This document shows, piece by piece, positions 1,997 to 45,826 of a DNA stretch of 64,000 bases. Position 1 is the stretch's first letter. Each line of letters opens with the position of its first letter. The notes beneath the pieces were generated by a model. It worked only from the letters and a program-made list of their open reading frames with translations. It had not been told where the DNA came from and searched no databases. The DNA is from a virus, in the IMG/VR virus record IMGVR_UViG_3300028364_000026, positions 24,630 through 88,629 of that record. One strand, given 5' to 3'. A program made the position numbers and the translations under genes.

Positions 1997-2872
1997 TTAC
2001 TTGGCTACCAACTGAACCCTTTCACTTGGGTTATCTATATATTCTATCGCATCAACATTTTGTTTAACTGCCACTAACTGAACCGCTTCACTTGGATTCG
2101 TTATATGTGTTATCGCATAACCATTTTGTTTAACTGCCACTAACTGAACATCTTCTGGTAATTCACTTGGATTATCTATATGTTGTATCGCATGCCCATT
2201 TTGTGTCACTGCCACTAACTGAAGTTGTTCACTTGGATTCTGTATATATACTATCGCATGCCCATCTTGTTTAACTGCCTCCATCTTAACTTGTTCACTT
2301 GGGTTATCTATATATGCTATCGCAAGACCATTTTTTGTAACTGCTGCTAACTGAACCGCTTCACTTGGTGTTATATCATTTCCTATAATATGTCTTATTG
2401 CACCACCATTTTGTGTAACTGCCGCTAACTGAAGTTGTTCACTTGGATTCTGTATGAATTCTATCGCATAACCATCTTGCTTAACTGCTGCTAACTGAAC
2501 CGCTTCACTTGGGTTATCTATATATTGTATAACAAAACCATTTTCTGTAACTGCTGCTAACTGAACCGCTTCACTTGGATTCTTTACGTATTCTATCGCA
2601 CCACCATTTTCTGTAACTGCTGCTAACTGAACCGCTTCACTTGGGTTATCTATATATCGTATCAAATCACCATTTTCTGTAACTGCTGCTAACTGAACAT
2701 CTTCTGGTAATTCACCATAATAATATTTAATGTACTTTACATCTTGTTTAACACTAAGTTCCATTTTTCTTAAATAAGAGGTTTTATTATTATCATTTAA
2801 CTGATTAAATTGCTCTCTAGGAATTCCATTTCCAGTATTGATATACTGTTTAATTAAATCTTTATTGTTCAT
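1997..2872 (-). CDS. Repeat protein cassette E (constant head plus 10 DUF4116-like repeats)
   Basis: MNNKDLIKQYINTG head, then (VQLAAVxxNGxAIxYIxNPSE)n. Confidence 0.85.
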   Translation of the reverse strand: MNNKDLIKQYINTGNGIPREQFNQLNDNNKTSYLRKMELSVKQDVKYIKYYYGELPEDVQLAAVTENGDLIRYIDNPSEAVQLAAVTENGGAIEYVKNPSEAVQLAAVTENGFVIQYIDNPSEAVQLAAVKQDGYAIEFIQNPSEQLQLAAVTQNGGAIRHIIGNDITPSEAVQLAAVTKNGLAIAYIDNPSEQVKMEAVKQDGHAIVYIQNPSEQLQLVAVTQNGHAIQHIDNPSELPEDVQLVAVKQNGYAITHITNPSEAVQLVAVKQNVDAIEYIDNPSERVQLVAK

Positions 2873-2902
2873 AATTAATTTTTATTTTGATTTGCTAAAC
2901 TC

Positions 2903-3850
2903 TTAAGTAATTAAATAATTAAATTGTTCATCAGTTAATCTGTGACCCCTACCAATATATTTAGATTTAAAATCAAATGGTAATTTCATAAACCATTTTA
3001 AATCTCCATTACTTCGACCCAATAATTGTTCCTCTTCTTTTTCACTATCTGTTTTAGGTCTATTAACCATCTTATCAACTGGAACACCATTAGATTTTAA
3101 ATAACTAACATAACCATCAACATCTTTACGGTACTCAGAAATATTTCCAGTGTTATTGTCAGCATCAGTTAATTCAATCCCGTAACGTGTACTATCAAAT
3201 ACAACTATGTGTAATGGGTCATTTAAATCAACACCACCGTTAGAAGTTGTTTTAAATTTATTGGTATCAACAATGAAATAAAATGATGAATCTTTAGTAT
3301 CTCTATAACTATTATACATAGTATTACCAAATTGACCAATACAAAAACCATAGTTTCTTCCAGTCAAACCACCTTTAGTGTATTGAATACACTTTTGAAT
3401 AGAGTCACCATCATAAATGTCAATTCCGTTACCAGACCATAATTTTTTAGTCTCACTCTCAAACTTTTCAGTATCCCCAACTTCAGCCTTTTTAGCATAC
3501 TTACCTTCCTCACCATGAATAAACTCAGCTAACGAAATGTAATCGTTAAACTTATTATCACCTATAACTATTTGATTATTAACAATCTGCATAGGTTTAA
3601 CTCTATTCTTTAACAACAATTTATCAAAGATATTAAAATCACTTAATATTGTGTCAATATCTGTAAAACCATTAGCATAAACAAAAGCCATAATTGGCAC
3701 ACTTTTTTGATTTTTTGATTCATCACCACCAGCAAATTTTGCGATAATTTCATCAGCATTCTCAACATTTGCTTTTTTTAACACACCTAACCCTTGAAGC
3801 TCTGAAGATTTAGACTCCAGTAAAAAACTATATATTTCTAAAAGTCTCAT
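2903..3850 (-). CDS. Hypothetical protein with C-x(n)-[W/F]C domain
   Basis: KCIQY...YGFCIG...MYNSYR...FYFIVD; similar to domains in 50044, 55205 and 61278. Confidence 0.8.
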   Translation of the reverse strand: MRLLEIYSFLLESKSSELQGLGVLKKANVENADEIIAKFAGGDESKNQKSVPIMAFVYANGFTDIDTILSDFNIFDKLLLKNRVKPMQIVNNQIVIGDNKFNDYISLAEFIHGEEGKYAKKAEVGDTEKFESETKKLWSGNGIDIYDGDSIQKCIQYTKGGLTGRNYGFCIGQFGNTMYNSYRDTKDSSFYFIVDTNKFKTTSNGGVDLNDPLHIVVFDSTRYGIELTDADNNTGNISEYRKDVDGYVSYLKSNGVPVDKMVNRPKTDSEKEEEQLLGRSNGDLKWFMKLPFDFKSKYIGRGHRLTDEQFNYLIT

Positions 3851-3993
3851 TTTTTTTTATTTAATATTTATTATTTGTTATTATATAAATATACCCTATC
3901 ACCATTAAAGTTAACTATATAATTGCGAATTTTGGGTTTTTATAAATATAGAGTAACTTGGATGTTAATTCTGTTATTTTCCTAATAATTAGG

Positions 3994-4659
3994 TTATCTA
4001 TTCCCCATGACTAACAACTTAACTTGCTCACTTGGATTCTCTATATATGTTATTGCGTGACTATTTTGCGTAACCGCTGCTATCTGAACCGTTTCACTTG
4101 GATTCTTTATATAGTATATTAAATTACCATTTTCTTTAACTGCTAACATCTGAACTCGTTCACTTGGATTCTTTATATATTTTAACGCAAAAGCATCTTC
4201 TTTAACTGCTGCTAACTGAACCGATTCACTTGGATTCTTTATGTATTGTATCACACGACCATCATGTTTAACTGCTGCTATCTGAACCGCTTCACTTGGA
4301 TTCTTTATGTATTGTATCACATAACCATTTTTTGTAACTGCCACTAACTGAACCACCTCACTTGGATTCTTTAGATATTGTATCGCTTCACCATCTTGTT
4401 TAACTGCCTCCATCTGAACTTGTTCACTTGGGTTCGTTATATGTTTTATCGCATAACCATCTTGTTTAACTGCCGCTAACTGAACATCTTCTGGTAATTC
4501 ACCATAATAATATTTAATGTACCTTACATCTTGTTTAATACTAAGTTCCATTTTTCTTAAATAAGAGGTTTTATTATTATCATTTAACTGATTAAATTGC
4601 TCTCTAGGAATTCCATTTCCAGTATTTATATACTGCTTTATTAAATCTTTATTGTTCAT
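3994..4659 (-). CDS. Repeat protein cassette D (7 repeats)
   Basis: Same head and 22-aa repeat. Confidence 0.85.
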   Translation of the reverse strand: MNNKDLIKQYINTGNGIPREQFNQLNDNNKTSYLRKMELSIKQDVRYIKYYYGELPEDVQLAAVKQDGYAIKHITNPSEQVQMEAVKQDGEAIQYLKNPSEVVQLVAVTKNGYVIQYIKNPSEAVQIAAVKHDGRVIQYIKNPSESVQLAAVKEDAFALKYIKNPSERVQMLAVKENGNLIYYIKNPSETVQIAAVTQNSHAITYIENPSEQVKLLVMGNR

Positions 4660-5124
4660 GGTTTATTTATTTGCATTTGCTGCTCTCTGAACCGCTTCAC
4701 TTGGTGTAATACCTTTTTTTGTTATATATCTTATCGCACGACCATCATGTTTAACTGCTGCTAACTGAACTTGTTCACTTGGCGTAATACCTTTTTCTAT
4801 TATCTGTGCTATCACAAAACCATTTTGTTTAACTGCTGCTAACTGAACCGCCTCACTTGGATTATTTATATAGTATATCGCACCACCATATTGTTTAACT
4901 GCTGCTAACTGAACTGCTTCACTTGGATTCTTTATGAATTCTATCACATTACCATCATGTTTAACTGCTGCTATCTGAACCGCTTCACTTGGATTCTTTA
5001 TGTATTGTATCACATAACCATTTTTTGTAACTGCCACTAACTGAACCACCTCACTTGGATTCTTTAGATATTGTATCGCTTCACCATCTTGTTTAACTGC
5101 CTCCATCTGAACTTGTTCACTTGG
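4258..5124. repeat. 174-bp identical direct repeat shared by cassettes D (4258-4431) and C (4951-5124)
   Basis: Base-by-base comparison by eye. Confidence 0.85.
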
Positions 5125-5550
5125 ATTATATATATATGTTATCGCACGACCATTTTGTTTAACTGCTTCTAACTGAACTACTTCACTTGGATTATGTATA
5201 TAGTGTATCGCACGACCATTTTGTTTAACTGCTTCTAACTGAACTACTTCACTTGGATTATGTATATAGGATATCGCATTACCATTTTGTGTAACTGCTG
5301 CTAACTGAACCGCTTCACTTGGATTCTTTATATAGGATATCGCATTACCATTTTGTGTAACTGCTGCTAACTGAACATCTTCTGGTAATTCACCATAATA
5401 ATATTCAATATAACTTGAATCTTGTTTAATACTAAGTTCCATTTTTCTTAAATAAGAGGTTTTATTATTATCATTTAACTGATTAAATTGCTCTCTAGGA
5501 ATTCCATTTCCAGTATTTATATACTGTTTTATTAAATCTTTATTGTTCAT
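4663..5550 (-). CDS. Repeat protein cassette C (10 repeats)
   Basis: Same head and 22-aa repeat. Confidence 0.85.
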   Translation of the reverse strand: MNNKDLIKQYINTGNGIPREQFNQLNDNNKTSYLRKMELSIKQDSSYIEYYYGELPEDVQLAAVTQNGNAISYIKNPSEAVQLAAVTQNGNAISYIHNPSEVVQLEAVKQNGRAIHYIHNPSEVVQLEAVKQNGRAITYIYNPSEQVQMEAVKQDGEAIQYLKNPSEVVQLVAVTKNGYVIQYIKNPSEAVQIAAVKHDGNVIEFIKNPSEAVQLAAVKQYGGAIYYINNPSEAVQLAAVKQNGFVIAQIIEKGITPSEQVQLAAVKHDGRAIRYITKKGITPSEAVQRAANANK

Positions 5551-5552
5551 AA

Positions 5553-6035
5553 TTAATTTTTATTTTGATTTGCTGCTAACCTAACCACCTCACTTGGTGT
5601 AATACCTTTTTTTACTATATGTTCTATCGCATCACCAGTTTGTGTAACTGCTGCTAACTGTACTTGTTCACTTGGATTCTCTATATAGTATATCGCATGC
5701 CCATCTTGTTTAACTGCCTCCATCTTAACTTGTTCACTTGGGTTATCTATATATGCTATCGCACCACCATCTTGTGTAACTGCCGCTAACTGAACCGCTT
5801 CACTTGGATTCTTTATATAGGATATCGCATTACCATTTTGTGTAACTGCTGCTAACTGAACATCTTCTGGTAATTCACCATAATAATATTTAATGTACCT
5901 TACATCTTGTTTAACACTAAGTTCCATTTTTCTTAAATAAGAGGTTTTATTATTATCATTTAACTGATTAAATTGCTCTCCAGGAATTCCATTTCCAGTA
6001 TTTATATACTGTTTAATTAAATCTTTATTGTTCAT
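5553..6035 (-). CDS. Repeat protein cassette B (4 repeats)
   Basis: Same head and 22-aa repeat. Confidence 0.85.
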   Translation of the reverse strand: MNNKDLIKQYINTGNGIPGEQFNQLNDNNKTSYLRKMELSVKQDVRYIKYYYGELPEDVQLAAVTQNGNAISYIKNPSEAVQLAAVTQDGGAIAYIDNPSEQVKMEAVKQDGHAIYYIENPSEQVQLAAVTQTGDAIEHIVKKGITPSEVVRLAANQNKN

Positions 6036-6037
6036 AA

Positions 6038-6730
6038 TTAATTTTTATTTTGATTTGCTGCTAACCTAACCACCTCACTTGGTGTTATATCATTTCCTAT
6101 AATATGTCTTATTGCACCACCATTTTGTGTAACTGCTGCTAACTGAACTTGTTCACTTGGCGTAATACCTTTTTCTATTATATGTACTATCGCATAACCA
6201 TTTTGTTTAACTGCTACTAACTGAAGCGATTCACTTGGATTCTGTATGAATTCTATCGCATAACCATCTTGTGTGACTGCCACTAACTGAAGCGATTTAC
6301 TTGGGTTATCTATATATTGTATAACAAAACCATTTTCTGTAACTGCTGCTAACTGAACCGCTTCACTTGGATTCTGTATGAATTCTATCGCACCACCATT
6401 TTCTGTAACTGCTGCTAACTGAACCGCTTCACTTGGGTTATCTATATATCGTATCGCACCACCATTTTGTTTAACTGCCACTAACTGAACTTGTTCACTT
6501 GGATTCTCTATATATTGTATCGCCCAACCATCTTGTGTAACTGCCGCTAACTGAACATCTTCTGGTAATTCACCATAATAATATTTAATGTACCTTGTAT
6601 CTTGTTTAATACTAAGTTCCATTTTTCTTAAATAAGAGGTTTTATTATTATCATTTAACCGATTAAATTGCTCTATGGGAATTCCATTTCCAGTATTTAT
6701 GTATTGTTTAATTAAATCTTTATTGTTCAT
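6038..6730 (-). CDS. Repeat protein cassette A (7 repeats)
   Basis: Same head and 22-aa repeat; ATATTTATA box at 6753-6761 upstream. Confidence 0.85.
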   Translation of the reverse strand: MNNKDLIKQYINTGNGIPIEQFNRLNDNNKTSYLRKMELSIKQDTRYIKYYYGELPEDVQLAAVTQDGWAIQYIENPSEQVQLVAVKQNGGAIRYIDNPSEAVQLAAVTENGGAIEFIQNPSEAVQLAAVTENGFVIQYIDNPSKSLQLVAVTQDGYAIEFIQNPSESLQLVAVKQNGYAIVHIIEKGITPSEQVQLAAVTQNGGAIRHIIGNDITPSEVVRLAANQNKN

Positions 6731-6929
6731 GGTTTATCTATAACGTTTTCAATATAAATATGATAAAATATTAAATAAAAACTAGAAACTGTAAGTATTT
6801 TAATTTAATTACTACTTTACAAAAAAATAGTAATAACTATATTATAAGTGAATAAATAATATATTCGGTTAGACCAAAAATACATAATTAATTTTAACGA
6901 TAACATAAATACAAATAAACAAAAATAAA

Positions 6930-7880
6930 ATGGGTTGGGTTCATAATAAAACAATAGGGTTAATGTTGGCTTTTTCAAAAGTTGAAAAAAATTCATTATC
7001 GCAAGAGAGAAATATGTTAAGTGATAACGCATCAAAGCATTCAGAAAAAGAAACTGGTAAATTAATGCATGATTTATTAAATAATGTAGTTTCGCAAGAA
7101 GTAAAAAATCTAAGGTGGAGAACCTATAAAGTCTTTAGTGCATCTAAAAATTTTAAAACGACCATTACAAGTTATGATGAAAATGATTTACCAATCGTTT
7201 CTAGTGAACAAACAATAGGTAAGGCGACCATTTTCAATAAATTTAAGTTTGACAAATTCGATTCTTATCCAGTAGAACACATATATTATAATCAAGAATC
7301 AACGTTAAGTCTAAATGATATTTCAGCTAGTAAAGACCTTATAATGCTAGACAATCCCACCCAACAAGAAGACGGTAGCGAGACAATTGGGACTATCGAT
7401 GGGTTGGCCATGTTTTCTTATAATAAAGGTGATTTCCCAATTATTATAAACAGAATGACAGTACCTAATTTTAATATTGAAAATTACACAAAAAAAATAG
7501 TTGTTAGGAAAATAAACTCAGAACAACGATTACTAGAATTTTATGTTAGCAAATACCCAGATGAATACAACAGAAGAAGTAGGTTGTTTTTAAGTGCGTT
7601 AAAAAAAGCTATTGATAAACCATATAGTGCTAGTATGCTAGAAATTAATTCAGTTGAATACGTAACATACTTGGCTATTGGGGTTAATGATTTTTTACAT
7701 TATAAATACGAACTAGAAAAATTTGATAAGATAATTGAGTTTGACGGTTCTTACGTAATTAAATTTATTTGTAATGTAACCAAAGATGGTATTAGTGTAA
7801 TCGACAAATATAAAGAAGAAGGGATAGAAAAAAAATATGCAAATAAGGTTAAAGAAAATAATAATAAAACGGTTAAATAA
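6930..7880 (+). CDS. Hypothetical protein
   Basis: 316-aa ORF with A-rich leader. Confidence 0.75.
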   Translation: MGWVHNKTIGLMLAFSKVEKNSLSQERNMLSDNASKHSEKETGKLMHDLLNNVVSQEVKNLRWRTYKVFSASKNFKTTITSYDENDLPIVSSEQTIGKATIFNKFKFDKFDSYPVEHIYYNQESTLSLNDISASKDLIMLDNPTQQEDGSETIGTIDGLAMFSYNKGDFPIIINRMTVPNFNIENYTKKIVVRKINSEQRLLEFYVSKYPDEYNRRSRLFLSALKKAIDKPYSASMLEINSVEYVTYLAIGVNDFLHYKYELEKFDKIIEFDGSYVIKFICNVTKDGISVIDKYKEEGIEKKYANKVKENNNKTVK

Positions 7881-7891
7881 TAATCTAACTT

Positions 7892-9619
7892 ATGACAAAA
7901 AGAAGTGTATCCACAGCAACAACGAAAACAACTGTAGCTAAAACTAAAAAAAATAAAATAGAAGATAATGGAGAAGGTTTTGAATCGAAAGCTAATCTTT
8001 TATCTCAAATAAAGTTAGTTTTAAAACACAAAAACGAGAACCAAAAAAAACTAACTCAATCAATTAAAGATAACGATGTTACAATATGTACTGGTTCAGC
8101 TGGTACTGGTAAAGCACAACCACTTGATTCATTAATTTTAACACCAAACGGGTATGTAACCATGGGTAGTATAAAATTAGGTGATAATGTTATTGGTGTC
8201 AACGGCAACCCGATAAAGGTTGATGGGGTTTACCCTAAAGGTGAAAAAGAAATTTATATTATTACTTTTTCAGACGGAACATCAACGGAATGTTGTGGAG
8301 AACATTTATGGTTTACACAAACAGATTTAGATAGAAAGAAAGTAACATTAGGTGATGAAACTAATAAATATGGTTCTGTTAAAAACACAATCGAAATAAT
8401 GAATAGTCTGCTTGTTGGTGATGATTTAGCAAAATTAAACCACACTATACCAATTGTTAAACCAATCAATTTTATAAAAAAACAAGTAGTGTTAGAACCT
8501 TATTCACTTGGGTGTTTATTAAGCAATATTGATTATAGAGTTAACACTATACCTGACTCCTCAGATAATAACGCTATACCAGAAGAATACTTAATTAATG
8601 ACGTAAATACCAGAATAGAACTGTTACAAGGGTTATTAGATACAGAAGGTTCAGTCGATGAAAGTTCTGGGACCCCAGTGTTTTATTCTATTTCCGAAAA
8701 ATTAATTGAAAATGTTATGTTTTTAATTCAATCACTAGGTGGAACAGCGATTAAAACAAAAGAAATTAATGATATTTATAAATTAAATATTAATTTACCA
8801 TCTGACATAGTTCCCTTTAAATCAGAAACTAAAATACGTTTATTAAAACAAAAAAATAAAAATCATCCTATTAGATATATTAAAAACATTGAACTAAAAG
8901 GTAATAAAGAGGTTCAATGTATTTCAGTTGATGATAGTAATCATTTATATTTGACAAACGATTGTATTGTAACACACAACACTTATTTGTCATGTCTTCA
9001 ATCCCTTTTAGAAATAAAAAGCGATAACAAAATAAATAAAATAGTTTTAGTTAAATCAGTCACAACATTAAAAACAGAAGAAATTGGTTTTTTAAAAGGT
9101 TCGATGGAGGAAAAAATGGAACCATTCATGTATTCGTTTACTGGTAATTTCGAAAAACTAATTGGTGGTGGTTTATTTAAAAAACTAAAAGAAAATCAAA
9201 CTATTCAAATATTACCAATAGCTTATCTTAGAGGTGTAAACATTGACAATGCGGTAGTTATTATTGACGAAGCTCAAAATATTAGTATTGATAACATAAG
9301 AACTATTTTAACTAGGTTAGGTGAAAACAGTAAAATGGTTTTTTTAGGTGACACTAAACAAATAGATGTTAAGAATAAATATGATAGTGCTTTAGGTTTT
9401 TTAATTGAAAATTTTAAAACAATAAATAATATTGGGATTGTAGAATTCACTAAAGAAGATATAATAAGACATAAGTTAATCAAAGTCATTGAGGACGTAT
9501 TTGATAAATTAGAAGAAGAAAAAAAAATAAAAAACACTATAAGACCAAAAATCGCTCATAAACAAATTATAGTAAAACCAAAAAATACTATATTAGAACG
9601 CATTAAGAATTTATTTTAA
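7892..9619 (+). CDS. phoH: PhoH-family ATPase with intein
   Basis: GSAGTGK|T Walker A split by the intein; IGFLKG, YLRG, IIDEAQN, TRLGENSK, GDTKQID. Confidence 0.92.
   Translation: MTKRSVSTATTKTTVAKTKKNKIEDNGEGFESKANLLSQIKLVLKHKNENQKKLTQSIKDNDVTICTGSAGTGKAQPLDSLILTPNGYVTMGSIKLGDNVIGVNGNPIKVDGVYPKGEKEIYIITFSDGTSTECCGEHLWFTQTDLDRKKVTLGDETNKYGSVKNTIEIMNSLLVGDDLAKLNHTIPIVKPINFIKKQVVLEPYSLGCLLSNIDYRVNTIPDSSDNNAIPEEYLINDVNTRIELLQGLLDTEGSVDESSGTPVFYSISEKLIENVMFLIQSLGGTAIKTKEINDIYKLNINLPSDIVPFKSETKIRLLKQKNKNHPIRYIKNIELKGNKEVQCISVDDSNHLYLTNDCIVTHNTYLSCLQSLLEIKSDNKINKIVLVKSVTTLKTEEIGFLKGSMEEKMEPFMYSFTGNFEKLIGGGLFKKLKENQTIQILPIAYLRGVNIDNAVVIIDEAQNISIDNIRTILTRLGENSKMVFLGDTKQIDVKNKYDSALGFLIENFKTINNIGIVEFTKEDIIRHKLIKVIEDVFDKLEEEKKIKNTIRPKIAHKQIIVKPKNTILERIKNLF
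8114..8980 (+). mobile_element. Class 3 intein (Ala1, 289 aa) with degenerate LAGLIDADG
   Basis: AQPLDSLILTPNG start; W-C-T signature (EHLW, VQCI, VTHN); Thr+1; LQGLLDTEG. Confidence 0.88.
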
Positions 9620-25174: not shown

Positions 25175-25900
25175 TTATCCTAATAGAAATTTATCTAAAC
25201 TATCGTTTAAATTTTCATTTACTATAGATTTTTTTGATGAAACCCCCTCAACGTATTGAAAAATTTCTTCTTTTTTAACTCCAACCCAAGAACCTGGGGT
25301 TGATGGAGTAGTAACTACATCCCAACAAATAATTTCATAATCGTCTTGAACTATCTGGTCACCATTTCTCCCTTCAACTAAAGAACCTAAACCTCTAGAT
25401 GAAACTCCAATTTTAATTCTATTTCTTAATAGGTTAGCAACTTCATCACCTTTTGTTGAGACAATACCATATTTAATAAATCCAGGAGTCATAAGGATTT
25501 CCATTTTACCAATCAGTGTATTACCTTCCCAAGACGTTTCTACTATGATATGAGAAATTCTATCACCAGCGATAATGTTTGACTCTGGATGGTCTAATTC
25601 ACCCACAGCTCTACGTTCTCTAATCGCTTCTTGATATAATCTATCTTGGTTCTTAAGTACTTTTTCTGGATAAATTCTACCATTACGGTTTAGAATATCA
25701 AACTTTTGTAATACCACATACACTAAAAGTGGTTCAATAACTTCTAACTTAACACCACTTTCTATTTTCTTTATTTCGTTAATGAATACTTGATTTCTTG
25801 GGTCTTCTGGAGATATGTAACCAGCATCGTGTTCGATAAGAATCCCCCAACCACTTTGACCTCGCTTTAATATTGTAGCATCTTTATTTGTACCGTTCAT
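25175..25900 (-). CDS. Prohead protease (T4 gp21-like)
   Basis: NRNGRIYP, GELDHP, GVSSRGLGS, WDVVTTPS. Confidence 0.92.
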   Translation of the reverse strand: MNGTNKDATILKRGQSGWGILIEHDAGYISPEDPRNQVFINEIKKIESGVKLEVIEPLLVYVVLQKFDILNRNGRIYPEKVLKNQDRLYQEAIRERRAVGELDHPESNIIAGDRISHIIVETSWEGNTLIGKMEILMTPGFIKYGIVSTKGDEVANLLRNRIKIGVSSRGLGSLVEGRNGDQIVQDDYEIICWDVVTTPSTPGSWVGVKKEEIFQYVEGVSSKKSIVNENLNDSLDKFLLG

Positions 25901-27880: not shown

Positions 27881-30800
27881 TTATTCTAATAATTTATTTA
27901 TATCATCAATCATAGTATTAACTGATTTGTTTATTTTTACTGATTTATCGTAAATCTTAACCCTTTCATTTTTTAAAGTGTTATCCTCAGTTTTAATAGA
28001 TTCTACCAATACATCAACCCATTTATTTTGATATTTTTTAGTTTTTTGAACCATTTTATTATTTAATTCAACTCTTTTATTAGTTAATAATTTATCTACT
28101 CTAACTAAATTTTCTGTCAAATTAGCTGGTTCCGCTTCTTCAACAGAACCTAAATCTTCTCCACCTAAATCTTCTCCACCTAAATCTTCACCACCAGTTT
28201 CTAAACTGTCGTCTCCACCTTCAGTTTCTCCATCACCAAAGTCTAAATCTTCACCACCAGAACCTCCACCTCCAAATGAAGCACCTCCTCCACCCCCAAA
28301 TGAAGCACCTCCTCCAGAAGCATCTCCACCCTCTTCACCTTCAGATGGGTTACCACCTTCTAGTGCGGCTTTAAAATCACCATATATTCTATCTACAGTA
28401 TCAAACATACCAGTATGTTTAATAACACTTGAGGTGTTAGCTAATTCAGCTGAAGCAGCTTTTTCCATTCTTTGTTCAAGTAAATCAGATTTTATTTCAT
28501 CATTAGACCAACCCAGTATTTCTCTATGAGCACGTGTCCAAGACATAACAGCAAAACCATTTCCAATATCAGCAACAGCATCTTTAACCAACGTAACTTT
28601 TTGTTGTAGGTGCTCAACCTTAAGCATTTCAGCTTGGGTTGATGGGTTATTTAACGTTAATGTAAAATTATCTAAGTCCTCATCAAAACCTAATAAATAT
28701 AGATGTATAATCGCTATTTTATTTAATTCTTGCAACATAGATTGTTGAATACGGTTAATCGTTCTAGAAAATCGGATATCTTGTATCGCTAAATTCTTTC
28801 CATCACCAGCAGCTTCTTCAAAACCTAAAAATGGTTTTGGTACTCTTAGGGCTGTAAATAAATTTCTTTGAAGGTACTCTATATCAGAAATCTGGTCTAA
28901 ATTACTGTTTTTCAAGTAGTTACCAGCTTCTGTTGCAAATGTATGATAATTATGGTATAATTCATCACCATCAACAGTTATTGTTCCAGTATCTATTTTA
29001 ATGGATGACCATTCAATAATACTTACTTTACGTATATTATCTTCTGTGTCATTAACACTATCATTGTTAAATGTCATCAATGAATCACCAACGACTAAAT
29101 CTTTAGCTTCAACAAAACCTTTAGTTTTATGCACCCATTTATGGTCGGGTGTTGTTGTAATTGACTGACCATTATCTAAGGTTACTTTCATAACTTCAGT
29201 ATTCATTCTAGTTTCACCAGCCCAAGTAATAATACCTGAAGCTAAAGCACCTGTATTAGGGTCACAAGAGTGTACCCACATATCTTTATTACCATTGTTC
29301 CATTCTGAAATAATTTCATTAAGTTCTAGTGTTCTACCATCTAATAATGGAATCCGAGTATCTAAAGCGATACAAGCACCAGGCAAAGTATCAATCGGGT
29401 TAGGAGCATCTTCTGTTCTTACTGGTATAAAATAATCTTGGTCGTTACTTAATTGATGATGTTTTAAATCTATTTGACCAGTCTGTGGGTCAACAATAGG
29501 CATACGTTTAAATCTATCCGCTATTGAGTTTACGTAACTTTCTACATCGGCTTCATCAATGTTACCAACATAAATTTTATAAACACGTCTTTCTGGTGCT
29601 CTAGTAACTCTATAAACCAACATTGCATCTTCAGAAAGAATTAATTGTTTCCAAATACGTCTTGCTTTCTCTAAAATAGAATTGTGGACAACGATACCAT
29701 TTGCATAGAAATTATGGTTATCATTTTCAACATATATATCGTATGTTTCGTGTTCACCACTTTCCTCAATTGATTTAATCGGTTCTAAAATAAAATCATT
29801 AGTTAACCTATTATCAACAACTAATAAATCACCTAATTTAAAATCTAGCGTATTTTTATAATCGAATTTATTTAATTCGGTATCATAATACATTATTTTA
29901 TGTTCTTTAGATGCGTCTATAAAATTATGTTCGGTGCTGAGTTTATAAGTTTTTTTATTACCAGAATTAACAGTATCCAATACTTTTGACAATACTTTCA
30001 CTTGATTAATTACATCAAATGAATAAACCATATCACCAATAACAATATCTTTTATCTCCTTATACCCCTCACTTGTCTCAACGCTAGAATCATATTTTAA
30101 ACACGTACCGTAAGGCAAACGTCTATCATCCCCTAATAAACGGAAATGAGCTATTTGCCATGAATTAAATTCTATATCACTTCCTCTCCAATAAAATTTG
30201 ACTTTATCTACAGTTGAGTTTTCTGTATTAGCTGAGCCAGTGACCATTTCAAATAAACCAACTTCTCTACGTTCCATCTCATAATTAGGTAATTGCTTAC
30301 CACCAACAACCCCTTGTTTTTCATCAATATTTAAAAAAACAAAATTATCACCATACTTACAATTTGATAAAAACACACCAGAATTTATTGAGTATGAACC
30401 ATTTAAATCTTTACCACAAATTGGGAAATTATGTCTATCGTGTTCTCCATTAGGCCCAACAGCTTCTAGACAATACACATTTGAAGTTTCAGCTAACTTA
30501 ATTACCGAAACGACTTTATGGTTAATTACTTTTTTTATTAAATTTATATCTTCGGCATTAAACGACATAAGTGATTCACCCACAACTAAACTATCAGCTC
30601 TTTTAAATGAACCATCCATAACCATATATTCATGGTCTGGTGTCGTATCAATATATGTTTCATCTTCTAGCGTTACACGATATAATTCACTATCTTCTCT
30701 GGTTAAATCACACCATATGATTTTACTAGGTACGATAACTTGGGTCTCATCCTGAATAGCGAAAGACCAAATTTCCTCACCTAATTTAACCCTAACAGAT

Positions 30801-31330
30801 AAGTCTTTTATAGTTGTTTCTGTCCCATCCAATAAAGGGATTATAGAATCTTCTCTAATTGGAGTATTTCTAACCCACATAGGTAATGACGTATGTAAAT
30901 CTAACCTATTAAAAAACAAATCTTCAAGTATACCCTTTACTCTATTACTATCAGAATAAATATTTAACACCCTACCATTATCGTTAACTGTAGTAGATTC
31001 TTCCATCATTACATCTAATGCGGCTGCGATTGTTGGGTAAAACTCCATTGCTTCAAAATCCGAATATGAGCCAATACGAGTTGTTTCATAATTCATAGAT
31101 TGCTGAAATAAGCCACTCTCAACTTTTTTCCACATCCCACCCAAATATTTATTTTGTTGAGCTTGTAGTTTTGCTCTCTCAAAGTCAGCTTTATTATCTG
31201 TTTTTAATATTTCGGTATTACCACCTAAATTATATCTTTGAGTTGGTTGTTTTTGGGTTAATCTATTTGATTCTGGACCAACAATTTGACCTAATCTTTG
31301 AAAAATTGTTAATTTATTGGTATTTGCCAT
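27881..31330 (-). CDS. Portal protein (T4 gp20-like) with three inteins; about 685 aa after splicing
   Basis: CKYGD, EDAMLVYRVTRAPERRVYKI, QDYFIP, IDTLPGA, ALRVPK, DIRFSRTI. Confidence 0.92.
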   Translation of the reverse strand: MANTNKLTIFQRLGQIVGPESNRLTQKQPTQRYNLGGNTEILKTDNKADFERAKLQAQQNKYLGGMWKKVESGLFQQSMNYETTRIGSYSDFEAMEFYPTIAAALDVMMEESTTVNDNGRVLNIYSDSNRVKGILEDLFFNRLDLHTSLPMWVRNTPIREDSIIPLLDGTETTIKDLSVRVKLGEEIWSFAIQDETQVIVPSKIIWCDLTREDSELYRVTLEDETYIDTTPDHEYMVMDGSFKRADSLVVGESLMSFNAEDINLIKKVINHKVVSVIKLAETSNVYCLEAVGPNGEHDRHNFPICGKDLNGSYSINSGVFLSNCKYGDNFVFLNIDEKQGVVGGKQLPNYEMERREVGLFEMVTGSANTENSTVDKVKFYWRGSDIEFNSWQIAHFRLLGDDRRLPYGTCLKYDSSVETSEGYKEIKDIVIGDMVYSFDVINQVKVLSKVLDTVNSGNKKTYKLSTEHNFIDASKEHKIMYYDTELNKFDYKNTLDFKLGDLLVVDNRLTNDFILEPIKSIEESGEHETYDIYVENDNHNFYANGIVVHNSILEKARRIWKQLILSEDAMLVYRVTRAPERRVYKIYVGNIDEADVESYVNSIADRFKRMPIVDPQTGQIDLKHHQLSNDQDYFIPVRTEDAPNPIDTLPGACIALDTRIPLLDGRTLELNEIISEWNNGNKDMWVHSCDPNTGALASGIITWAGETRMNTEVMKVTLDNGQSITTTPDHKWVHKTKGFVEAKDLVVGDSLMTFNNDSVNDTEDNIRKVSIIEWSSIKIDTGTITVDGDELYHNYHTFATEAGNYLKNSNLDQISDIEYLQRNLFTALRVPKPFLGFEEAAGDGKNLAIQDIRFSRTINRIQQSMLQELNKIAIIHLYLLGFDEDLDNFTLTLNNPSTQAEMLKVEHLQQKVTLVKDAVADIGNGFAVMSWTRAHREILGWSNDEIKSDLLEQRMEKAASAELANTSSVIKHTGMFDTVDRIYGDFKAALEGGNPSEGEEGGDASGGGASFGGGGGASFGGGGSGGEDLDFGDGETEGGDDSLETGGEDLGGEDLGGEDLGSVEEAEPANLTENLVRVDKLLTNKRVELNNKMVQKTKKYQNKWVDVLVESIKTEDNTLKNERVKIYDKSVKINKSVNTMIDDINKLLE
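28907..29374 (-). mobile_element. Portal intein 3 (156-aa mini-intein), ends KN
   Basis: CIALDTRI...TTPDHKW...HTFATEAGNYLKN|S; removal gives TLPGA|SNL. Confidence 0.88.
29681..30103 (-). mobile_element. Portal intein 2 (141-aa mini-intein)
   Basis: CLKYDSSV...ASKEH...TYDIYV...HNFYANGIVVHN|S. Confidence 0.92.
30362..30862 (-). mobile_element. Portal intein 1 (167 aa), Pro1, block F Cys, ends SN; Cys+1
   Basis: PIREDSIIPLLDG aligns with CIALDTRIPLLDG of intein 3; TTPDHEY; VYCLE; removal gives WVRNT|CKYGD. Confidence 0.8.
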
Positions 31331-31379: not shown

Positions 31380-34300
31380 TTATTTTCTACGTCCAAATAA
31401 CCAACCATATTGACCATTTGGGTCTCTTGGGTTTTTAAAGGTTTCTTTAGGTTTTGAGTATATTTTAGAATCAATAGGTCTAGAGTCTACTCTTTCATTT
31501 ACTATTGGTTTATTCGAACCACCATTCAACCAAGAACTTAACATTGCTTTGTTTTGTTTCTCCAATCTTTCAAGACTCTTAAATGAATGTTCAGCAACCC
31601 ATAAAGCCATAGCAATGGCCATGATTAAATCATCGTGAGCACCTTCTTGGTGGTCTGGGCGACCATTTTTGTAAATAAAGGTATTCAGTTCGGTAATCAT
31701 TCTAGCCGAACGAATTTTTATAGTATTGGTCCTAATACTATATTCTAAGTTTGATATCATAGGTAAACGCACACTTGTTGCATGAAATCCTGGGATTTTA
31801 TTATCAGAACTACCACTTACAAGTTCTCTTTGTCTAGCTGAAAGTATTTTACCGTTTGAATTGTCGTAATGTAACAATTTATATTCGAATTCAAGTAACT
31901 TTAATACAGTTGAAACACCCATACCACCAGTAACATCGACTACTGTATATGCTTTATACTTTGAACCATATTCCTCAACTATTTGTGCCAGTAAATCAGG
32001 TTGTATTTTACCTTGATACTCCATAACTTCTTCCATTACAGTAATATCAATAATAACTACAGTAGATTCATCGGCACCATCACCTCTACTTACATCACAA
32101 TTATGTGTTGTTATATGGTGACACATAAAAGTGTTAGTTTCACATTCAAAATTATAAACATCCCCAGTAAACTTAGACTTGTTTATGTTGTTAACTTTAA
32201 AATAAATATAATCTTTATTGTCATCAAAATGACAAGAGTTAATGGTTTGTTTATTATTTGAGTTAAAATCATTAAAATTTAATTCATTTAATTCAGTATC
32301 ATCAGTTTTATAAATTAGTTTTATTAAATCTAAACTGTCATGACTAGCTAAAGTTAAATCATAGCTTTCTGTCCCCCCCAATTTACCTAAAGATGAAACA
32401 ACCCCCAATGAAAATATAATATCTTGTACTGACTCTAATAATTCTAAATTTACACCAACAAAACTCAGTTTTAGGTATTGTTTAGTTTTACTCAAACATC
32501 CATTACTATCAAAGTAACCTCTAATTAATTCTTTTTTGTTTTCATCAGAGATAAACTTAACCCACTCTGATATTTTATTGTCATTTGAATTTTGACCAAA
32601 GTTTTCTAATATAAAATAATATAAAAATTTATAATTAAATTCTATTGTTTTGTTATTATGGCTAAATAATGGTGAACAGTTAAATAATCGGGTTATAATA
32701 TTTTTATATTTTTCGACATAACCTTTTTGGGTTTTATCAAAATTTAGTGATATTGAATGGGAATCTTTAGTTAACGAACCATTACCTAACCACATACCAA
32801 TAAACCACCAAAAATCGTTATCGAGTAATGGTGAATCGATATTACAAGGTACATCATTAGTTACTACCCATTTATCTTCATAAGTGGAATTAATTGATTT
32901 TTTGTAGGTGTTAGGGACTTTTACCCAATCACCTACTTCAACCTCTTCTACCCTTGTATAATTGAAATCTAAATCTAAATTACTTTTACTAATTAAAATT
33001 GGGTGTTCCTTGGTGAATGTTGTTGTTCTAAACGTACTATCCATTTGTATTTCAAATATATCCTCATCAATTACAGGATAAATTTGTCTATTAATTATAT
33101 TTACGTAATTACCATCTTCACTTACTAACTTATCGTTAATGTCAACATCTTTAATATTTACTAACCCTTTATCAGTTAATACTTTTTCGTATGGGGTTAA
33201 ACACCCCAATATATATTGGTGTCCTTCAATAGGTTCAGCCCATACCCATATTTCCTTATTTGCACCAAAAGTTGCAATTGGTTCTTTTACGTTATTCTTT
33301 TCCTGAAACAAAATAAATTCTTCTGCAATAACGTTACCTCCAGAACCAATGAACGACACATCAAGTTCTTGTGCAATCATTTTTGCGTCATTATTCATAC
33401 CCATACACATACCTTCATACCAAGTAGAAGTAGCTTTCCAACCATCATCTAAACGAAGTTTATAAGATTCAAAAGTGAATTCATACTCGCTTTCTACAAT
33501 ATCGTCTTTTAACCAACGTAAGTCTTTATTATAACGCAAATCTTCATGCCATTTCATTTCAACAATATTGAAATTATTTTTCTTATATTTTGCTTGGTCG
33601 TAAGTTTTATAATATAAAGAATCCATACCATTTGGTGTTTGATGACCTAATATACCATTATAAATAACGGAATGACACCAAAAATCATTAGTTTCAGGTA
33701 ATGAAACATCATATGTTTTATTTTTAAGTTTTTCTAATTTAGTTATTGGAACCCATTTTGAATCTTTAAAATTAATTTTATCAATTGAATATCTGGATAA
33801 ATCAAGATTTAAAACATTAATAAAATAATCTATAAATTCATTAAAAATATTTACTGATAAATTAGCTGTTTTGTTTTTATTATAAATTCTAATTTTATTA
33901 ACTAGTAAACCAGTGTTAGGTAATTTTCTAACTAATTTATGTTCGTTTATGATATTTCTAATTATATTTTTACCGTTTGGTATTATTCTATTATTATAGG
34001 ATACTAATTTATTTTGTCCTCTTTTTATTTGTTTCCTATTAAATCTAAAACCAATGGTGTCGTAATATTTATCCGCATCAATAGATGTTGATGAAATCTT
34101 ATAATATTGACTACTAACTTTAACTTTTTTAGTTGGTAGTGTTATTCCTTCTGAATAATCAGTTAATATACCAAGATTTAAAAATAAAAACCTTATTTGT
34201 TGAATTAATTTTTTAGAGGACAAATTTATACCTATCGTACCTCTAATATTATCAGAATAACCATCACCATCCATAATACCTTGTAACATAGCAATAATAT

Positions 34301-36734
34301 TTTCACGCCCCATTTCAAGTAAACGTTTAGGTATTAACTTATTTGGGGCTTTTAAGGTTAAATTAAACCCCAAATACTCTAATAAACCACCTAAATATTT
34401 AGATGAAATTTTATAGTGTAAATTATCGTGTGATGAATAATTAAACCCAGCATTAGATATGTATGTGCCAACATTATCACCACATGTTATCGTAATATCA
34501 CAACCATAAATATTTTTTGGTTCATAACTAGACCCTTCTGATAAATATAAACCAATTAGATAAGCTAAATCAGTATTTATTTTATCATAAATTATTTTTG
34601 GTTTATCTTCTGTATTTGAAAACTCATAGGTAAAATCAATGGTATCGTTATTACCAAAAATATTAAACGAATGTTGTACATTAACATAATCACCGATTTC
34701 TAATTCACTAACCGTAAACCAATCATATTTGTTTTTTTTATTTGAATAAGACCACAATTTATGTGTTTCAGTTGACTCAAGTTCTGAATTATTAGTTGTT
34801 AATTTTATAGTTTCTTGAAAACCATTATTAACAATTAAATTTGATTTCCTAGATACATTATTTCCTCTAATATTATATTCTTTAACATAATAACCTAAAT
34901 TAGGTATATCTGGTTCATCATAATTAATAATGTCTTTCATTTGTTGTAAACCATTGTCAGTAAAAATAAAAGTATCTTCAGTAACACAGGATATAAGTGT
35001 CGCTCTACCCCCAGTATTATGACTTATAATACCGTTTGAAATAAATGAATTTGTTTCTGGTACATGTAAATCATAAGTATAATCTTCTGACTCAGTTATA
35101 GAAATAATTTCATCGATATAAAACATTTTTTCATTACTTACATTAACAAATCTTGCGTTTTTTTTCTTATTTAATAAAAATTCTTTATTATTTTGTTTTC
35201 TATCTAATCTGAAACCAATTTCGTCATAAAATTTAATTGCATTATTTGAATAAATTTTTAAGTTGTAAATTTTACAAATATTTTTTTTATTTTTTATTAT
35301 TGATGATTTAGAAGTTTTTTCTTTTTCATATTTAATATGTGATATAATACCAAAATTAAATAATAAAGTTTGTAGTGTTTGAATTAATTTTTTGGATGTG
35401 CTTGAATATTTAATATCCTTTACAGTACTCACCCCATCACCATCGAATATACCTTGTAAAAACACTTTAATGACATCTTTAGGCATCTTTAATAAAGCTA
35501 AAGGTATTTCCTTATCCCTAGCATTATTTTTCGCCAACCCAAACATTTTAAACCATTCTATTAACTCAGTTGAGTTAAATTGATAATGACGGTCATCAAC
35601 TTTTTTAAATGCGTTACCTAAACAAGCTTTATCTGTTAATAGAAAATTTGTTATGTAATCGTCAATATTTGTGATGGTAATACCACTTGAATTAAAATTA
35701 CCCTGAGCTAAGAATAATCCTAATAAATAAGAAAAATCTAAATTATCACCAAGGTTTTTAGGTATTGTGATGTTTTCACCATTTTTGTGTTTATCGAAAA
35801 CAAAATTTACTTCGCTATTATTACTAAAATAATTTTGACCATATTGAATTATTGGTTTGTCACCAATTTTTAATTCGTTCATCCGTACCCAATTCTCAAC
35901 TCCATGGTTATCAATTAAAATAGGATGTTTCCAACTGCCCTCTAATTCAACACCTAATTTAGTTTTAATTTTAAATGTTTGACCATATTCACTAACAAAA
36001 GTTTGAGTTGCGTTAACAATATCACCATCTTTATTACAAACTTTATGTGGTAACTCCAAATCGGTAAAACCTATTTTATCTTTTTCAGAAACTAATTCAT
36101 CAAGTTGAATTAAACCATTTTCAGTTAAAATTAACGAATCTTTTGTTAAACAACCTAGTGCAGTAAGTGCAGCACCAAAAACTTCCGCTCCGTTATCAAT
36201 ATAAGCGGCCTCATCCATAATAAGGGTTGTTGGGGTAAAACCACGAAGTGCATCCTTAGAAGTTGCTACGGCCTTTACTCTACTATTATTTGGTAATCTA
36301 ATTTCTTTTTTGGCGTTAACAATAAAAATTGTTTTAGCTTCATTCTCTGGAGAACCATAATATTCGTCTCCCCAAACCCATCTTGGTAATTGAGATAGAA
36401 AATCTTTAATTTTTGCCAAGAATTCAAAAGCTAAATCTTGTTTATTCGCAATAATAAGAATATTCTCAGGGTTATTACCGTCAGCTAAGGCTACGATAAT
36501 AGCCATATATGCAGCGGTGGTTGTAGATACACCAGCTTGTCTAGGTTTTGTTACTATATTAAATCTATGGTTTTGATAAGCGGTTATGATTTCTTTTTGT
36601 CTAGGAAATAGAACAAATGGTACAAAACCTTCTTGTGTTTTATCAAAAGTAGTTAAATATGTTTCAATAGCATATGTTGGGTCTTGCAAACACATAGCAT
36701 ATTCATATAAAATTTCCGTTGTTGTCAGATTCAT
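31380..36734 (-). CDS. Terminase large subunit (T4 gp17-like) with three inteins; about 587 aa after splicing
   Basis: KPRQAGVST, LIMDEAAY, IS|TPNG, G|CDVSRGDG, HDDLIMA. Start 36734 preferred because a late box lies at 36746-36754. Confidence 0.93.
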   Translation of the reverse strand: MNLTTTEILYEYAMCLQDPTYAIETYLTTFDKTQEGFVPFVLFPRQKEIITAYQNHRFNIVTKPRQAGVSTTTAAYMAIIVALADGNNPENILIIANKQDLAFEFLAKIKDFLSQLPRWVWGDEYYGSPENEAKTIFIVNAKKEIRLPNNSRVKAVATSKDALRGFTPTTLIMDEAAYIDNGAEVFGAALTALGCLTKDSLILTENGLIQLDELVSEKDKIGFTDLELPHKVCNKDGDIVNATQTFVSEYGQTFKIKTKLGVELEGSWKHPILIDNHGVENWVRMNELKIGDKPIIQYGQNYFSNNSEVNFVFDKHKNGENITIPKNLGDNLDFSYLLGLFLAQGNFNSSGITITNIDDYITNFLLTDKACLGNAFKKVDDRHYQFNSTELIEWFKMFGLAKNNARDKEIPLALLKMPKDVIKVFLQGIFDGDGVSTVKDIKYSSTSKKLIQTLQTLLFNFGIISHIKYEKEKTSKSSIIKNKKNICKIYNLKIYSNNAIKFYDEIGFRLDRKQNNKEFLLNKKKNARFVNVSNEKMFYIDEIISITESEDYTYDLHVPETNSFISNGIISHNTGGRATLISCVTEDTFIFTDNGLQQMKDIINYDEPDIPNLGYYVKEYNIRGNNVSRKSNLIVNNGFQETIKLTTNNSELESTETHKLWSYSNKKNKYDWFTVSELEIGDYVNVQHSFNIFGNNDTIDFTYEFSNTEDKPKIIYDKINTDLAYLIGLYLSEGSSYEPKNIYGCDITITCGDNVGTYISNAGFNYSSHDNLHYKISSKYLGGLLEYLGFNLTLKAPNKLIPKRLLEMGRENIIAMLQGIMDGDGYSDNIRGTIGINLSSKKLIQQIRFLFLNLGILTDYSEGITLPTKKVKVSSQYYKISSTSIDADKYYDTIGFRFNRKQIKRGQNKLVSYNNRIIPNGKNIIRNIINEHKLVRKLPNTGLLVNKIRIYNKNKTANLSVNIFNEFIDYFINVLNLDLSRYSIDKINFKDSKWVPITKLEKLKNKTYDVSLPETNDFWCHSVIYNGILGHQTPNGMDSLYYKTYDQAKYKKNNFNIVEMKWHEDLRYNKDLRWLKDDIVESEYEFTFESYKLRLDDGWKATSTWYEGMCMGMNNDAKMIAQELDVSFIGSGGNVIAEEFILFQEKNNVKEPIATFGANKEIWVWAEPIEGHQYILGCLTPYEKVLTDKGLVNIKDVDINDKLVSEDGNYVNIINRQIYPVIDEDIFEIQMDSTFRTTTFTKEHPILISKSNLDLDFNYTRVEEVEVGDWVKVPNTYKKSINSTYEDKWVVTNDVPCNIDSPLLDNDFWWFIGMWLGNGSLTKDSHSISLNFDKTQKGYVEKYKNIITRLFNCSPLFSHNNKTIEFNYKFLYYFILENFGQNSNDNKISEWVKFISDENKKELIRGYFDSNGCLSKTKQYLKLSFVGVNLELLESVQDIIFSLGVVSSLGKLGGTESYDLTLASHDSLDLIKLIYKTDDTELNELNFNDFNSNNKQTINSCHFDDNKDYIYFKVNNINKSKFTGDVYNFECETNTFMCHHITTHNCDVSRGDGADESTVVIIDITVMEEVMEYQGKIQPDLLAQIVEEYGSKYKAYTVVDVTGGMGVSTVLKLLEFEYKLLHYDNSNGKILSARQRELVSGSSDNKIPGFHATSVRLPMISNLEYSIRTNTIKIRSARMITELNTFIYKNGRPDHQEGAHDDLIMAIAMALWVAEHSFKSLERLEKQNKAMLSSWLNGGSNKPIVNERVDSRPIDSKIYSKPKETFKNPRDPNGQYGWLFGRRK
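32100..33203 (-). mobile_element. TerL intein 3 (368 aa) with LAGLIDADG-like endonuclease
   Basis: CLTPYEKV...FIGMWLGNG...IRGYFDSNG...HITTHN|C. Confidence 0.9.
33639..34988 (-). mobile_element. TerL intein 2 (450 aa) with LAGLIDADG endonuclease, C-terminal Gln
   Basis: CVTEDTFI...LIGLYLSEG...LQGIMDGDG...NGILGHQ|T. Confidence 0.9.
35016..36152 (-). mobile_element. TerL intein 1 (379 aa) with LAGLIDADG endonuclease
   Basis: CLTKDSLI...LLGLFLAQG...LQGIFDGDG...NGIISHN|T. Confidence 0.92.
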
Positions 36735-45446: not shown

Positions 45447-45826
45447 AATATATGAATGAATTAAAAAAAATAACTAAATCCGTTGATATGTCTGGATTTA
45501 GTGTATTAACGGATAATGGTTTTCAGAAGTTAGAAAAACTACATGAAACCATACCATATGACGTATATCAGTTAAAACTAAGTGATGGTAAGGGACTTAA
45601 ATGTGCTGATAACCATATTGTTTTTACAGTTAATGGTGATGAAATATTTGTTAAAAACCTAAAAGTAGGGGATTCAATTATTACTCAATACGATGAATTA
45701 GGTCAAGCAAAAGAATCTGAGGTAACTGAGTTAACCAATTTAGGTTATGAAGAAATAATGTATGACTTTGAATTGACTGAAGGGTCCAATAGAAGATACT
45801 ATACCAATGGGATATTATCGCACAAT
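45345..45826 (+). mobile_element. Naturally split intein: IntN 33 aa (45345-45443), IntC 125 aa (45452-45826)
   Basis: Block A lies before the TAG. Block B (CADNH), F (MYDF) and G (ILSHN|T) follow a new ATG in a different frame. Confidence 0.88.

Follow-up and report, generated by a model that had tools for sequence, protein, structure and literature searches.

Proteins of the DUF4116 family (Pfam PF13475) are built from a repeated unit of 22 residues and occur in multiple copies in large viral genomes such as those of jumbo phages and giant viruses, where they are among the larger unexplained gene families. Matching places number 34 in Salicola phage SCTP-2 and 16 in Agrobacterium phage Atu_ph07, all annotated as hypothetical. 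A passage of a 2021 modelling paper (PMC8078820) models the family as an α-solenoid, and the passages found in the literature searched propose neither a partner protein nor a function for it. The locus described here comprises five tandem DUF4116 genes, designated A to E, and a sixth gene, X, in a stretch of 64,000 nt (the window) that corresponds to bases 24630–88629 of the linear IMG/VR virus record IMGVR_UViG_3300028364_000026 (88,629 bases). A–E share the 22-residue repeat, the predicted α-solenoid and the multi-copy occurrence with other DUF4116 proteins. They differ from the proteins of known DUF4116 phages in an N-terminal head (MNNKDLIKQY...) that is unmatched in 50,697 phage records, among which X has one distant match at 28% identity. 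With a probability of roughly 55%, the locus is a two-component hub-and-adaptor module in which X is the hub and A–E are swappable adaptors. The head family, the partner X and the predicted contact between them are new here.

Several described systems have a comparable layout. F-box proteins, the substrate receptors of SCF (Skp1–cullin–F-box) ligases, combine a helical N-terminal adaptor of about 50 residues with variable repeats, and many such paralogs serve one constant hub; proteins with both an F-box and DUF4116 repeats occur naturally, as in Marseillevirus LCMAC201. The likeness is nevertheless an analogy and not a membership: the head has no F-box match in Pfam at E ≤ 0.01 in any paralog, neither Skp1 nor a cullin is present, the host is a bacterium, and the predicted hub, X, is a different protein.

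The T4 internal proteins IPI–III carry a capsid-targeting leader and consist of a constant N-terminus and a variable body, encoded in a tandem, recombination-prone locus. The same arrangement of constant N-terminal part, variable body and recombining tandem genes is present here in a T4-like phage, but the head is a folded unit of 58 residues predicted to bind X, and the locus lies outside the virion head module. Branched tailspike receptor-binding sets have a conserved N-terminal anchor, an exchangeable C-terminal part, several paralogs and one docking partner. The present module resembles them in its conserved N-terminal docking part and exchangeable C-terminal part, and by analogy would work as such anchor-domain sets do without being one of them; its bodies are α-solenoids rather than β-helical fibres or spikes, and no tail or baseplate genes were found near the array. 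Armadillo, HEAT, PPR, TALE and ankyrin proteins also present a few hypervariable surface positions per unit on a fixed scaffold, as here, whereas the unit of A–E has just 22 residues and matches no solved structure at E ≤ 0.001.

The head, gene X and their predicted contact

A–E and X are encoded on the minus strand, and the five reading frames of A–E are intact. Paralog A (6038–6730; 230 aa) consists of the 58-residue head, seven DUF4116 units, of which the last two have 26 residues, and a partial C-terminal unit. The head is followed by four units in B (5553–6035; 160 aa), ten in C (4663–5550; 295 aa), seven in D (3994–4659; 221 aa) and ten in E (1997–2872; 291 aa). The head runs from MNNKDLIKQY through YYYGELPED, and each protein closes with a partial C-terminal unit of 7–11 residues. 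An earlier note on this DNA, made from its letters alone, had described the five paralogs with a common head and 7, 4, 10, 7 and 10 units (38 in total) and had remarked on a likeness to DUF4116. Both observations stand: all five proteins score above the curated gathering score of the Pfam family (39.4–94.3 versus 24.9 bits). Their PHROG matches (5925, 17056, 25923 and 35305) are without assigned function. Longer units of 26 residues with GITPSE or DITPSE do cap A, B and C (A6, A7, B4, C9 and C10), as the note proposed; since a further one, E5, is internal, they are not exclusively caps, and D has none.

The head is nearly invariant, as also noted earlier, with paralog pairs differing at 3–10 of 174 head nucleotides (94–98% DNA identity). 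This near-identity includes synonymous sites and therefore indicates recent duplication or gene conversion, beyond selection on the protein alone. Leu-55 is invariant in the head alignment, and the motif L-P-E stands at the junction of head and first repeat. By a head hidden Markov model (HMM), the 88.6 kb of the phage contain no head-bearing genes besides A–E.

Relatives of the head are found beyond this phage. A head-only search of a word-indexed database returned 8 proteins, two with a different type of repeat as body. Against 1.84 billion representatives, phmmer with the 58-residue head matched 117 clusters at E ≤ 0.001 (16 at E ≤ 1e-10), and in 112 of these the match started within the first four residues. 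What follows the head is either a set of DUF4116 repeats or helical repeats of an unrelated kind, and head identity of 55–83% is retained even where the repeat types of the bodies are unrelated. Conserved head peptides, scanned against IMG/VR, yielded 15 loci on 12 contigs; at each locus the head HMM counts between one and six head genes, frequently in tandem, with DUF4116 bodies at loci L026–L029 and unrelated helical repeats at the remaining ones. By these sequence comparisons, the head is a widespread N-terminal module, newly recognised here, that carries different repeat bodies.

The largest of these arrays (L033:10001–13953, on an IMG/VR contig) has six consecutive head open reading frames, the first of 47 aa and the other five of 205–265 aa. 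Its bodies are not DUF4116 but YEF..L..E.K..Y-type repeats resembling the second half of the head, and the head may derive from one unit of such a repeat.

Gene X (2903–3850; 315 aa), the proposed hub, lies between D and E as a sixth gene within the array, where the earlier note did not mention it. When 20 neighbouring proteins were compared with the head loci, X alone was matched in more than two. Full-length orthologs (52–62% identity) are present at 10 of the 15 head loci, or on 10 of the 12 distinct contigs, and at most of these loci X is within a few bases of a head gene; at L030, L032 and L033, head genes found by regular expression start 0.6 to 4 kb beyond X. A more distant X (47% identity, metagenome contig L041) is likewise flanked by head genes. 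The metagenome scan for X gave two 47%-identical loci only and missed a 97%-identical contig obtained by homolog search. Of 1,053 candidate homologs of X, 333 pass E ≤ 0.001, and several of these lie on contigs of 288–325 kb; among the 120 homologs listed, the sole functional name is one automatic JGI label (YbjQ/UPF0145).

Natural fusions also join X to the head. In the 631-residue protein P0274, a part with 53% identity to X over 316 residues (E 2e-120) is directly followed by a head and DUF4116 units. P0279 and P0239 are X–head–repeat fusions of the same kind, the body of P0239 not being DUF4116.

A complex of X (49-row alignment) with residues 1–80 of B (14-row alignment) was modelled with interface scores (ipSAE, interaction prediction score from aligned errors) of 0.68, 0.44 and 0.65, a median of 0.65, and the best of three controls scored 0.00. 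In the calibration of the tool, 58 of 80 solved complexes attained the ipSAE mark, as did 2 of 110 mismatched pairs, counts that hold only roughly here because custom alignments were used. Contact agreement between runs was at least 63%, and the predicted local distance difference test score (pLDDT) of the partner was at least 58. Neither X nor the head has a solved relative, so the model is not the memory of a solved complex. The predicted interface pairs X residues 292–315 and 155–174 with head residues 1–25 and 39–50. It takes in 12 of the 17 invariant head columns among 24 interface residues of 80 (hypergeometric p 1.1e-4), and 8 of its 23 X residues are invariant, as against 57 of 315 overall (p 0.037). 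The model supports a putative binding of the head to X.

Three independent lines tie the head to X: their genes are neighbours, the two occur fused in nature, and the model of their complex passes its controls. In the proposed mechanism, the head would dock onto the C-terminal helices of X (residues 292–315) and the patch at 155–174, so that a single constant X could carry any of five alternative solenoids. These would present different surfaces through three unit positions: 12 and 15, carried by the short second helix, and 18, in the next loop. The family diversifies as repeats are duplicated in tandem, cross over unequally and exchange cassettes, and the head stays uniform in its DNA. If the head binds X, a set of hypothetical repeat proteins becomes a system of one hub and many adaptors whose targets can be fished with a solenoid as bait, and its small conserved docking head and conserved partner offer a testable handle on DUF4116.

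The 49-sequence alignment of X has 57 invariant columns, including Cys-154, Cys-170, His-214, Asp-211, Asp-219 and Asp-229 and a C-terminal block (Lys-295, Tyr-298, Ile-299, Gly-300, Arg-301, Leu-305, Gln-309, Phe-310, Tyr-312 and Leu-313). Its AlphaFold2 model is of moderate confidence (pLDDT 79; predicted template modelling score, pTM, 0.51) and comprises a helical N-terminal part, an α/β core in which the invariant Cys, His and Asp residues lie, and helices at the C-terminus. Family searches with X gave no Pfam (E ≤ 10), PHROG, NCBIfam or PADLOC match apart from FtsH_ext at E 2, the X profile matched no sequence of a solved structure, and Foldseek of the model against the PDB returned nothing below E 0.22. 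The MYST acetyltransferases found at that value (TM score 0.2) were treated as noise.

Of 30 named Atlas hits from a language-model search with X residues 125–260, 26 belong to the PcfJ set, and in the two PcfJ clusters shown for X, 25–35% of members carry PcfJ, with scores of 0.91–0.93. The PcfJ HMM (PF14284) did not match X even at E ≤ 10, and the relation is a lead only. PcfJ itself is not known to have a function. A term search of a jumbo-phage comparative paper (PMC7824862) returned no passage on PcfJ, solenoids or helical repeats, and literature on jumbo-phage multigene families with conserved N-termini contributed nothing relevant among the matches listed.

Two further proteins stand beside head genes in other loci. 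One, of 703 residues (L026:12848–14959), carries 13 DUF4116 units together with a distant X-like core and a head-like segment in its interior; its alignment with X (hhalign probability 54%, E 1.3e-4, 83 columns) is a moderate lead. The other, of 610 residues (L030:8789–10621), adjoins head genes and has five DUF4116-type units. A resemblance of X to the N-terminal domain of P0041 that is fused to DUF4116 (BLASTP E 0.005) is not supported by hhalign (probability 0.4%, E 0.15).

Fold, variability and mosaicism of the repeat arrays

Structure prediction, one of the checks suggested in the earlier note, gave a confident all-α solenoid with two helices per unit. The AlphaFold2 model of B, made from a 14-row alignment, has a pLDDT of 91.7 and a pTM of 0.83 and shows the α-solenoid fold expected of DUF4116. 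The head is modelled as four helices (residues 3–13, 19–23, 27–43 and 45–50). Each unit consists of a 10-residue helix (positions 22 to 9), a 6-residue helix (positions 11–16) and a loop that holds NPSE.

Against the PDB, Foldseek with the B model found nothing at E ≤ 0.001, the best match being a designed armadillo protein (E 0.35, TM score 0.36). A sequence comparison of C with solved structures matched AI-designed TIM barrels only, through periodic similarity, and no natural PDB entry. In the BFVD viral structure library the B model has 19 matches at E ≤ 0.001; the named ones are mostly DUF4116 and include proteins of Atu_ph07, Klosneuvirus and Bodo saltans virus, and ranks 5 and 10 are the F-box plus DUF4116 proteins of Marseillevirus LCMAC201. 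A 22-residue helix-hairpin unit with three hypervariable positions and no solved relative is a compact natural scaffold that may interest structural biologists and protein designers.

The fixed scaffold with variation concentrated after G, after AI and before NPSE, described in the earlier note, is reproduced by the entropy of 32 aligned 22-residue units. Entropy peaks at position 12, after G (3.12 bits), position 15, after AI (2.99 bits), position 18, before NPSE (2.54 bits), and position 1 (2.37 bits); Ala-6, Val-7, Asn-19, Pro-20 and Ser-21 never change. In the model, the short helix carries positions 12 and 15, spaced by three residues, and the loop after it holds 18; the three probably line one side of the short-helix layer. 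We infer that this face of the solenoid binds ligands and would have biological targets.

The per-position test of substitution rates that the note envisaged gave ratios of non-synonymous to synonymous polymorphism (pN/pS) of 3.2, 2.4 and 7.1 at positions 12, 15 and 18; because the units are paralogous, recombining and subject to gene conversion, these ratios are not a standard test of positive selection. Many scaffold codons have no synonymous diversity among units. Fifteen non-overlapping pairs of the most similar units (88–100% nucleotide identity) differ by 7 synonymous and 54 non-synonymous nucleotides (pN/pS 2.1), and positions 12, 15 and 18 account for 18 of their 41 changed codons. These differences fit selection for different residues, or selection against homogenisation by gene conversion.

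The same positions vary most among 878 DUF4116 units from 145 other proteins (3.79 bits at position 12 and 3.04 at position 15). The layout of fixed frame and variable surface is therefore a trait of DUF4116 and is not peculiar to this locus. The diversified recognition system proposed in the earlier note keeps its architecture, which is real, and loses its claim to be special to these genes.

At the DNA level, A–E are mosaics of common cassettes. Twelve exact matches of at least 45 nt between paralogs extend past the first 190 nt of the gene, and several of them cross the junction of head and first repeat. The longest, of 174 nt, makes units 5–7 of C (4951–5124, minus strand) identical to units 2–4 of D (4258–4431). 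Cassettes are further shared between A units 3–4 and E units 2–3, A7 and E5, and B3 and E7, and B1 equals C1.

At 2140–2166 (minus strand) E carries a fusion scar, 27 nt that repeat exactly the junction of head and first repeat (GELPEDVQL) found in all five genes. This internal copy marks E as an eight-unit gene fused to a two-unit gene minus its head, by an event that deleted a stop codon and one head. In another member of the family, the 446-residue P0044, two complete head and DUF4116 genes stand in one frame, with the second head at residues 251–293, another sign that fusion and fission are frequent.

Comparison across populations, also envisaged earlier, finds that the array differs in salt-lake contigs and in one protein from a short contig. 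The salt-lake run X5, from another study, contains a 1,314-nt contig with X, which has 17 differences over 1,036 nt; upstream of X, 153 unmatched letters are followed by A-like units 2–3 in place of gene D. Three additional joints are confined to this run. Contigs across repeats can be chimeric, so X5 counts as moderate evidence only that the array varies between populations while X stays about 98% identical. The short-contig protein, P0122 (138 aa; 563-bp ENA contig), joins the head of A to units 2–4 of B and is either a deletion variant, possibly an A/B hybrid, or an assembly chimera. Runs X1 and X2 split the array into unitigs of 114–207 nt, identical to the window and uninformative on haplotypes, and window positions 6801–6950 are covered by no listed piece from any run.

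Readings of the locus

The earlier note took A–E for a library of free, interchangeable binders, directed for example against host defence proteins. Under such a reading the head would be a cap or folding unit, and X a neighbour left over from a fused ancestor. It agrees with a genuine solenoid fold and genuine hypervariable positions, with the N-terminal position of the head on a stand-alone protein in most clusters (112 of 117), with the occurrence of DUF4116 arrays behind many other N-terminal domains, and with one multi-locus head contig that has no X in the parts retrieved. The idea of interchangeable binders is reasonable for the repeat part, although there it holds for the whole DUF4116 family. 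It accounts poorly for a head whose 55–83% identity behind unrelated repeat bodies exceeds the needs of a cap, for the adjacency of X on 10 of 12 contigs, and for an X–head model that passes its controls. Nothing ties any member to defence systems, and defence proteins as targets find no backing: PADLOC, a library of defence and not of anti-defence systems, gave no match with X, C or two neighbouring genes. Gene X and the wider head family shift the reading from free binders, which we consider rather unlikely, to adaptors docked on a hub.

The set could also be virion cargo or structural protein, with the head as a packaging signal, perhaps cut at L-P-E by the prohead protease, and X as a receptor or structural protein on the virion side. 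The phage is T4-like, with a gp21-type prohead protease, a Gp23 capsid and a Gp20 portal; a constant leader, a variable body and a tandem polymorphic locus make up the layout of the T4 internal proteins; gp21 cleaves at L-x-E, with which the invariant Leu-55 agrees; and A and X have the element TATTTATA and their strand in common with the protease gene. The T4 leader, however, has about 10 residues, as against a folded four-helix head of 58, and the locus is situated among nucleotide-metabolism genes, 15 kb from the virion head genes. In other head proteins, moreover, LPE(D) recurs within the body, where it belongs to the repeat, so it need not be a cleavage site. On balance a virion role is improbable.

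Two explanations concern the variation alone. Neutral expansion of a recombination-prone array with little or no function would suit the extensive unequal crossing-over, the fused E and the possible A/B hybrid, but it is very hard to reconcile with five intact frames, invariant scaffold residues, non-synonymous change confined to particular positions, and a head and X conserved over many contigs. Targeted hypermutation, by a diversity-generating retroelement or similar, could focus variation on a few codons in a near-identical DNA scaffold and is the least credible of the readings considered here. A retroelement was rejected: the 88.6-kb contig, about 25% of the genome, has no match to reverse transcriptase (RVT_1), no template repeat was identified, and the changes are not of the adenine-restricted type. 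Several codon positions change and the residues include Trp, Glu, Gln and Lys; 38 dispersed three-codon targets are unlike known variable regions, and the same positions vary throughout the family, including its cellular and giant-virus homologs.

A number of points count against a hub with docked adaptors. Binding of the head to X is a model prediction, and since X and the head form one polypeptide in some relatives, the model may pass because it mirrors intrachain packing and not an assembly in trans. That invariant head residues are enriched at the interface is in part a trivial result, as head residues 1–45 are at once the conserved part and the part offered to the model. The searches do not assign a function to X, and the model of its whole chain is moderate. 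Here X has four of the five paralogs upstream of it, whereas in relatives the head genes are mostly downstream. For the solenoids, placement of positions 12, 15 and 18 on one face follows from secondary structure and spacing, and the pN/pS contrast is drawn between paralogous repeats undergoing gene conversion, outside the scope of a standard test for positive selection.

A more ambitious version of the hub-and-adaptor module is tentative. By analogy, it could be a phage counterpart of the F-box/SCF principle, with X as an effector that head-tagged solenoids aim at several host proteins. X would then perhaps be an enzyme using the invariant Cys-154, Cys-170, His-214 and Asp residues, and recombination of cassettes would reshuffle the set of adaptors when hosts change. 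If true, uncultured jumbo phages of fresh water would possess a programmable targeting system.

Promoter elements and genomic setting

The earlier note placed the array under a late-type promoter. The canonical T4 late motif TATAAATA is absent upstream of A in gene orientation; what is present is its reverse complement, TATTTATA, at 6753–6760 (minus strand, 30 nt upstream of A), which reads TATAAATA on the plus strand. A second TATTTATA is found at 3884–3891 (minus strand), 41 nt upstream of X. These are candidate promoter elements. In gene orientation, TATTTATA occurs 11–80 nt upstream of 17 of the 86 genes of the contig, in 14 cases at 11–41 nt, with the gene at window 25175–25900 as a further example, and TATAAATA occurs within 80 nt upstream of 5 of the 86. 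TATTTATA may be a promoter element of this clade's own. The prohead protease gene is among the 17, and its TATTTATA, together with the strand that the array shares with the capsid genes, hints at a promoter class in common with a morphogenesis gene; the class cannot be called late.

The source is an uncultured, distant T4-like jumbo phage of lake water. The record is estimated to be 25% complete, which implies a genome of roughly 350 kb, and the GC content is 24–36%. It encodes a Gp23-type major capsid protein (E 1.4e-71), a T4-type portal (Gp20, E 5.3e-55) split by inteins, a gp21-type prohead protease, dUTPase, thymidylate synthase and an intein-bearing PhoH. The closest capsid proteins among the phage records, at 37–44% identity only, belong to uncultured megaphages, Microcystis phage Mel-JY01 and Flavobacterium phages. 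The public sequencing runs that contain the stretch are lake-water metagenomes, and no RNA dataset is among those listed. The array sits amid nucleotide-metabolism genes.

Inteins are unusually abundant in this phage. The portal gene (27881–31330, minus strand) has intein splicing domains, in three matched stretches, and the adjoining gene of 1,784 aa (31380–36734, minus strand) carries LAGLIDADG-bearing inteins. The PhoH-like ATPase (7892–9619, plus strand; E 1.2e-50) is interrupted by a LAGLIDADG-bearing intein, an insert of about 290 residues that breaks the P-loop region. Elsewhere in the window, a 720-residue ClpB-like double AAA+ chaperone (45452–47614, plus strand) matches AAA_2 (E 2.4e-62) and ClpB_D2-small. 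A 932-residue protein (50044–52842, plus strand) has an N-terminal ART-PolyVal ADP-ribosyltransferase domain (E 2.6e-10) and may be a polyvalent, possibly injected protein.

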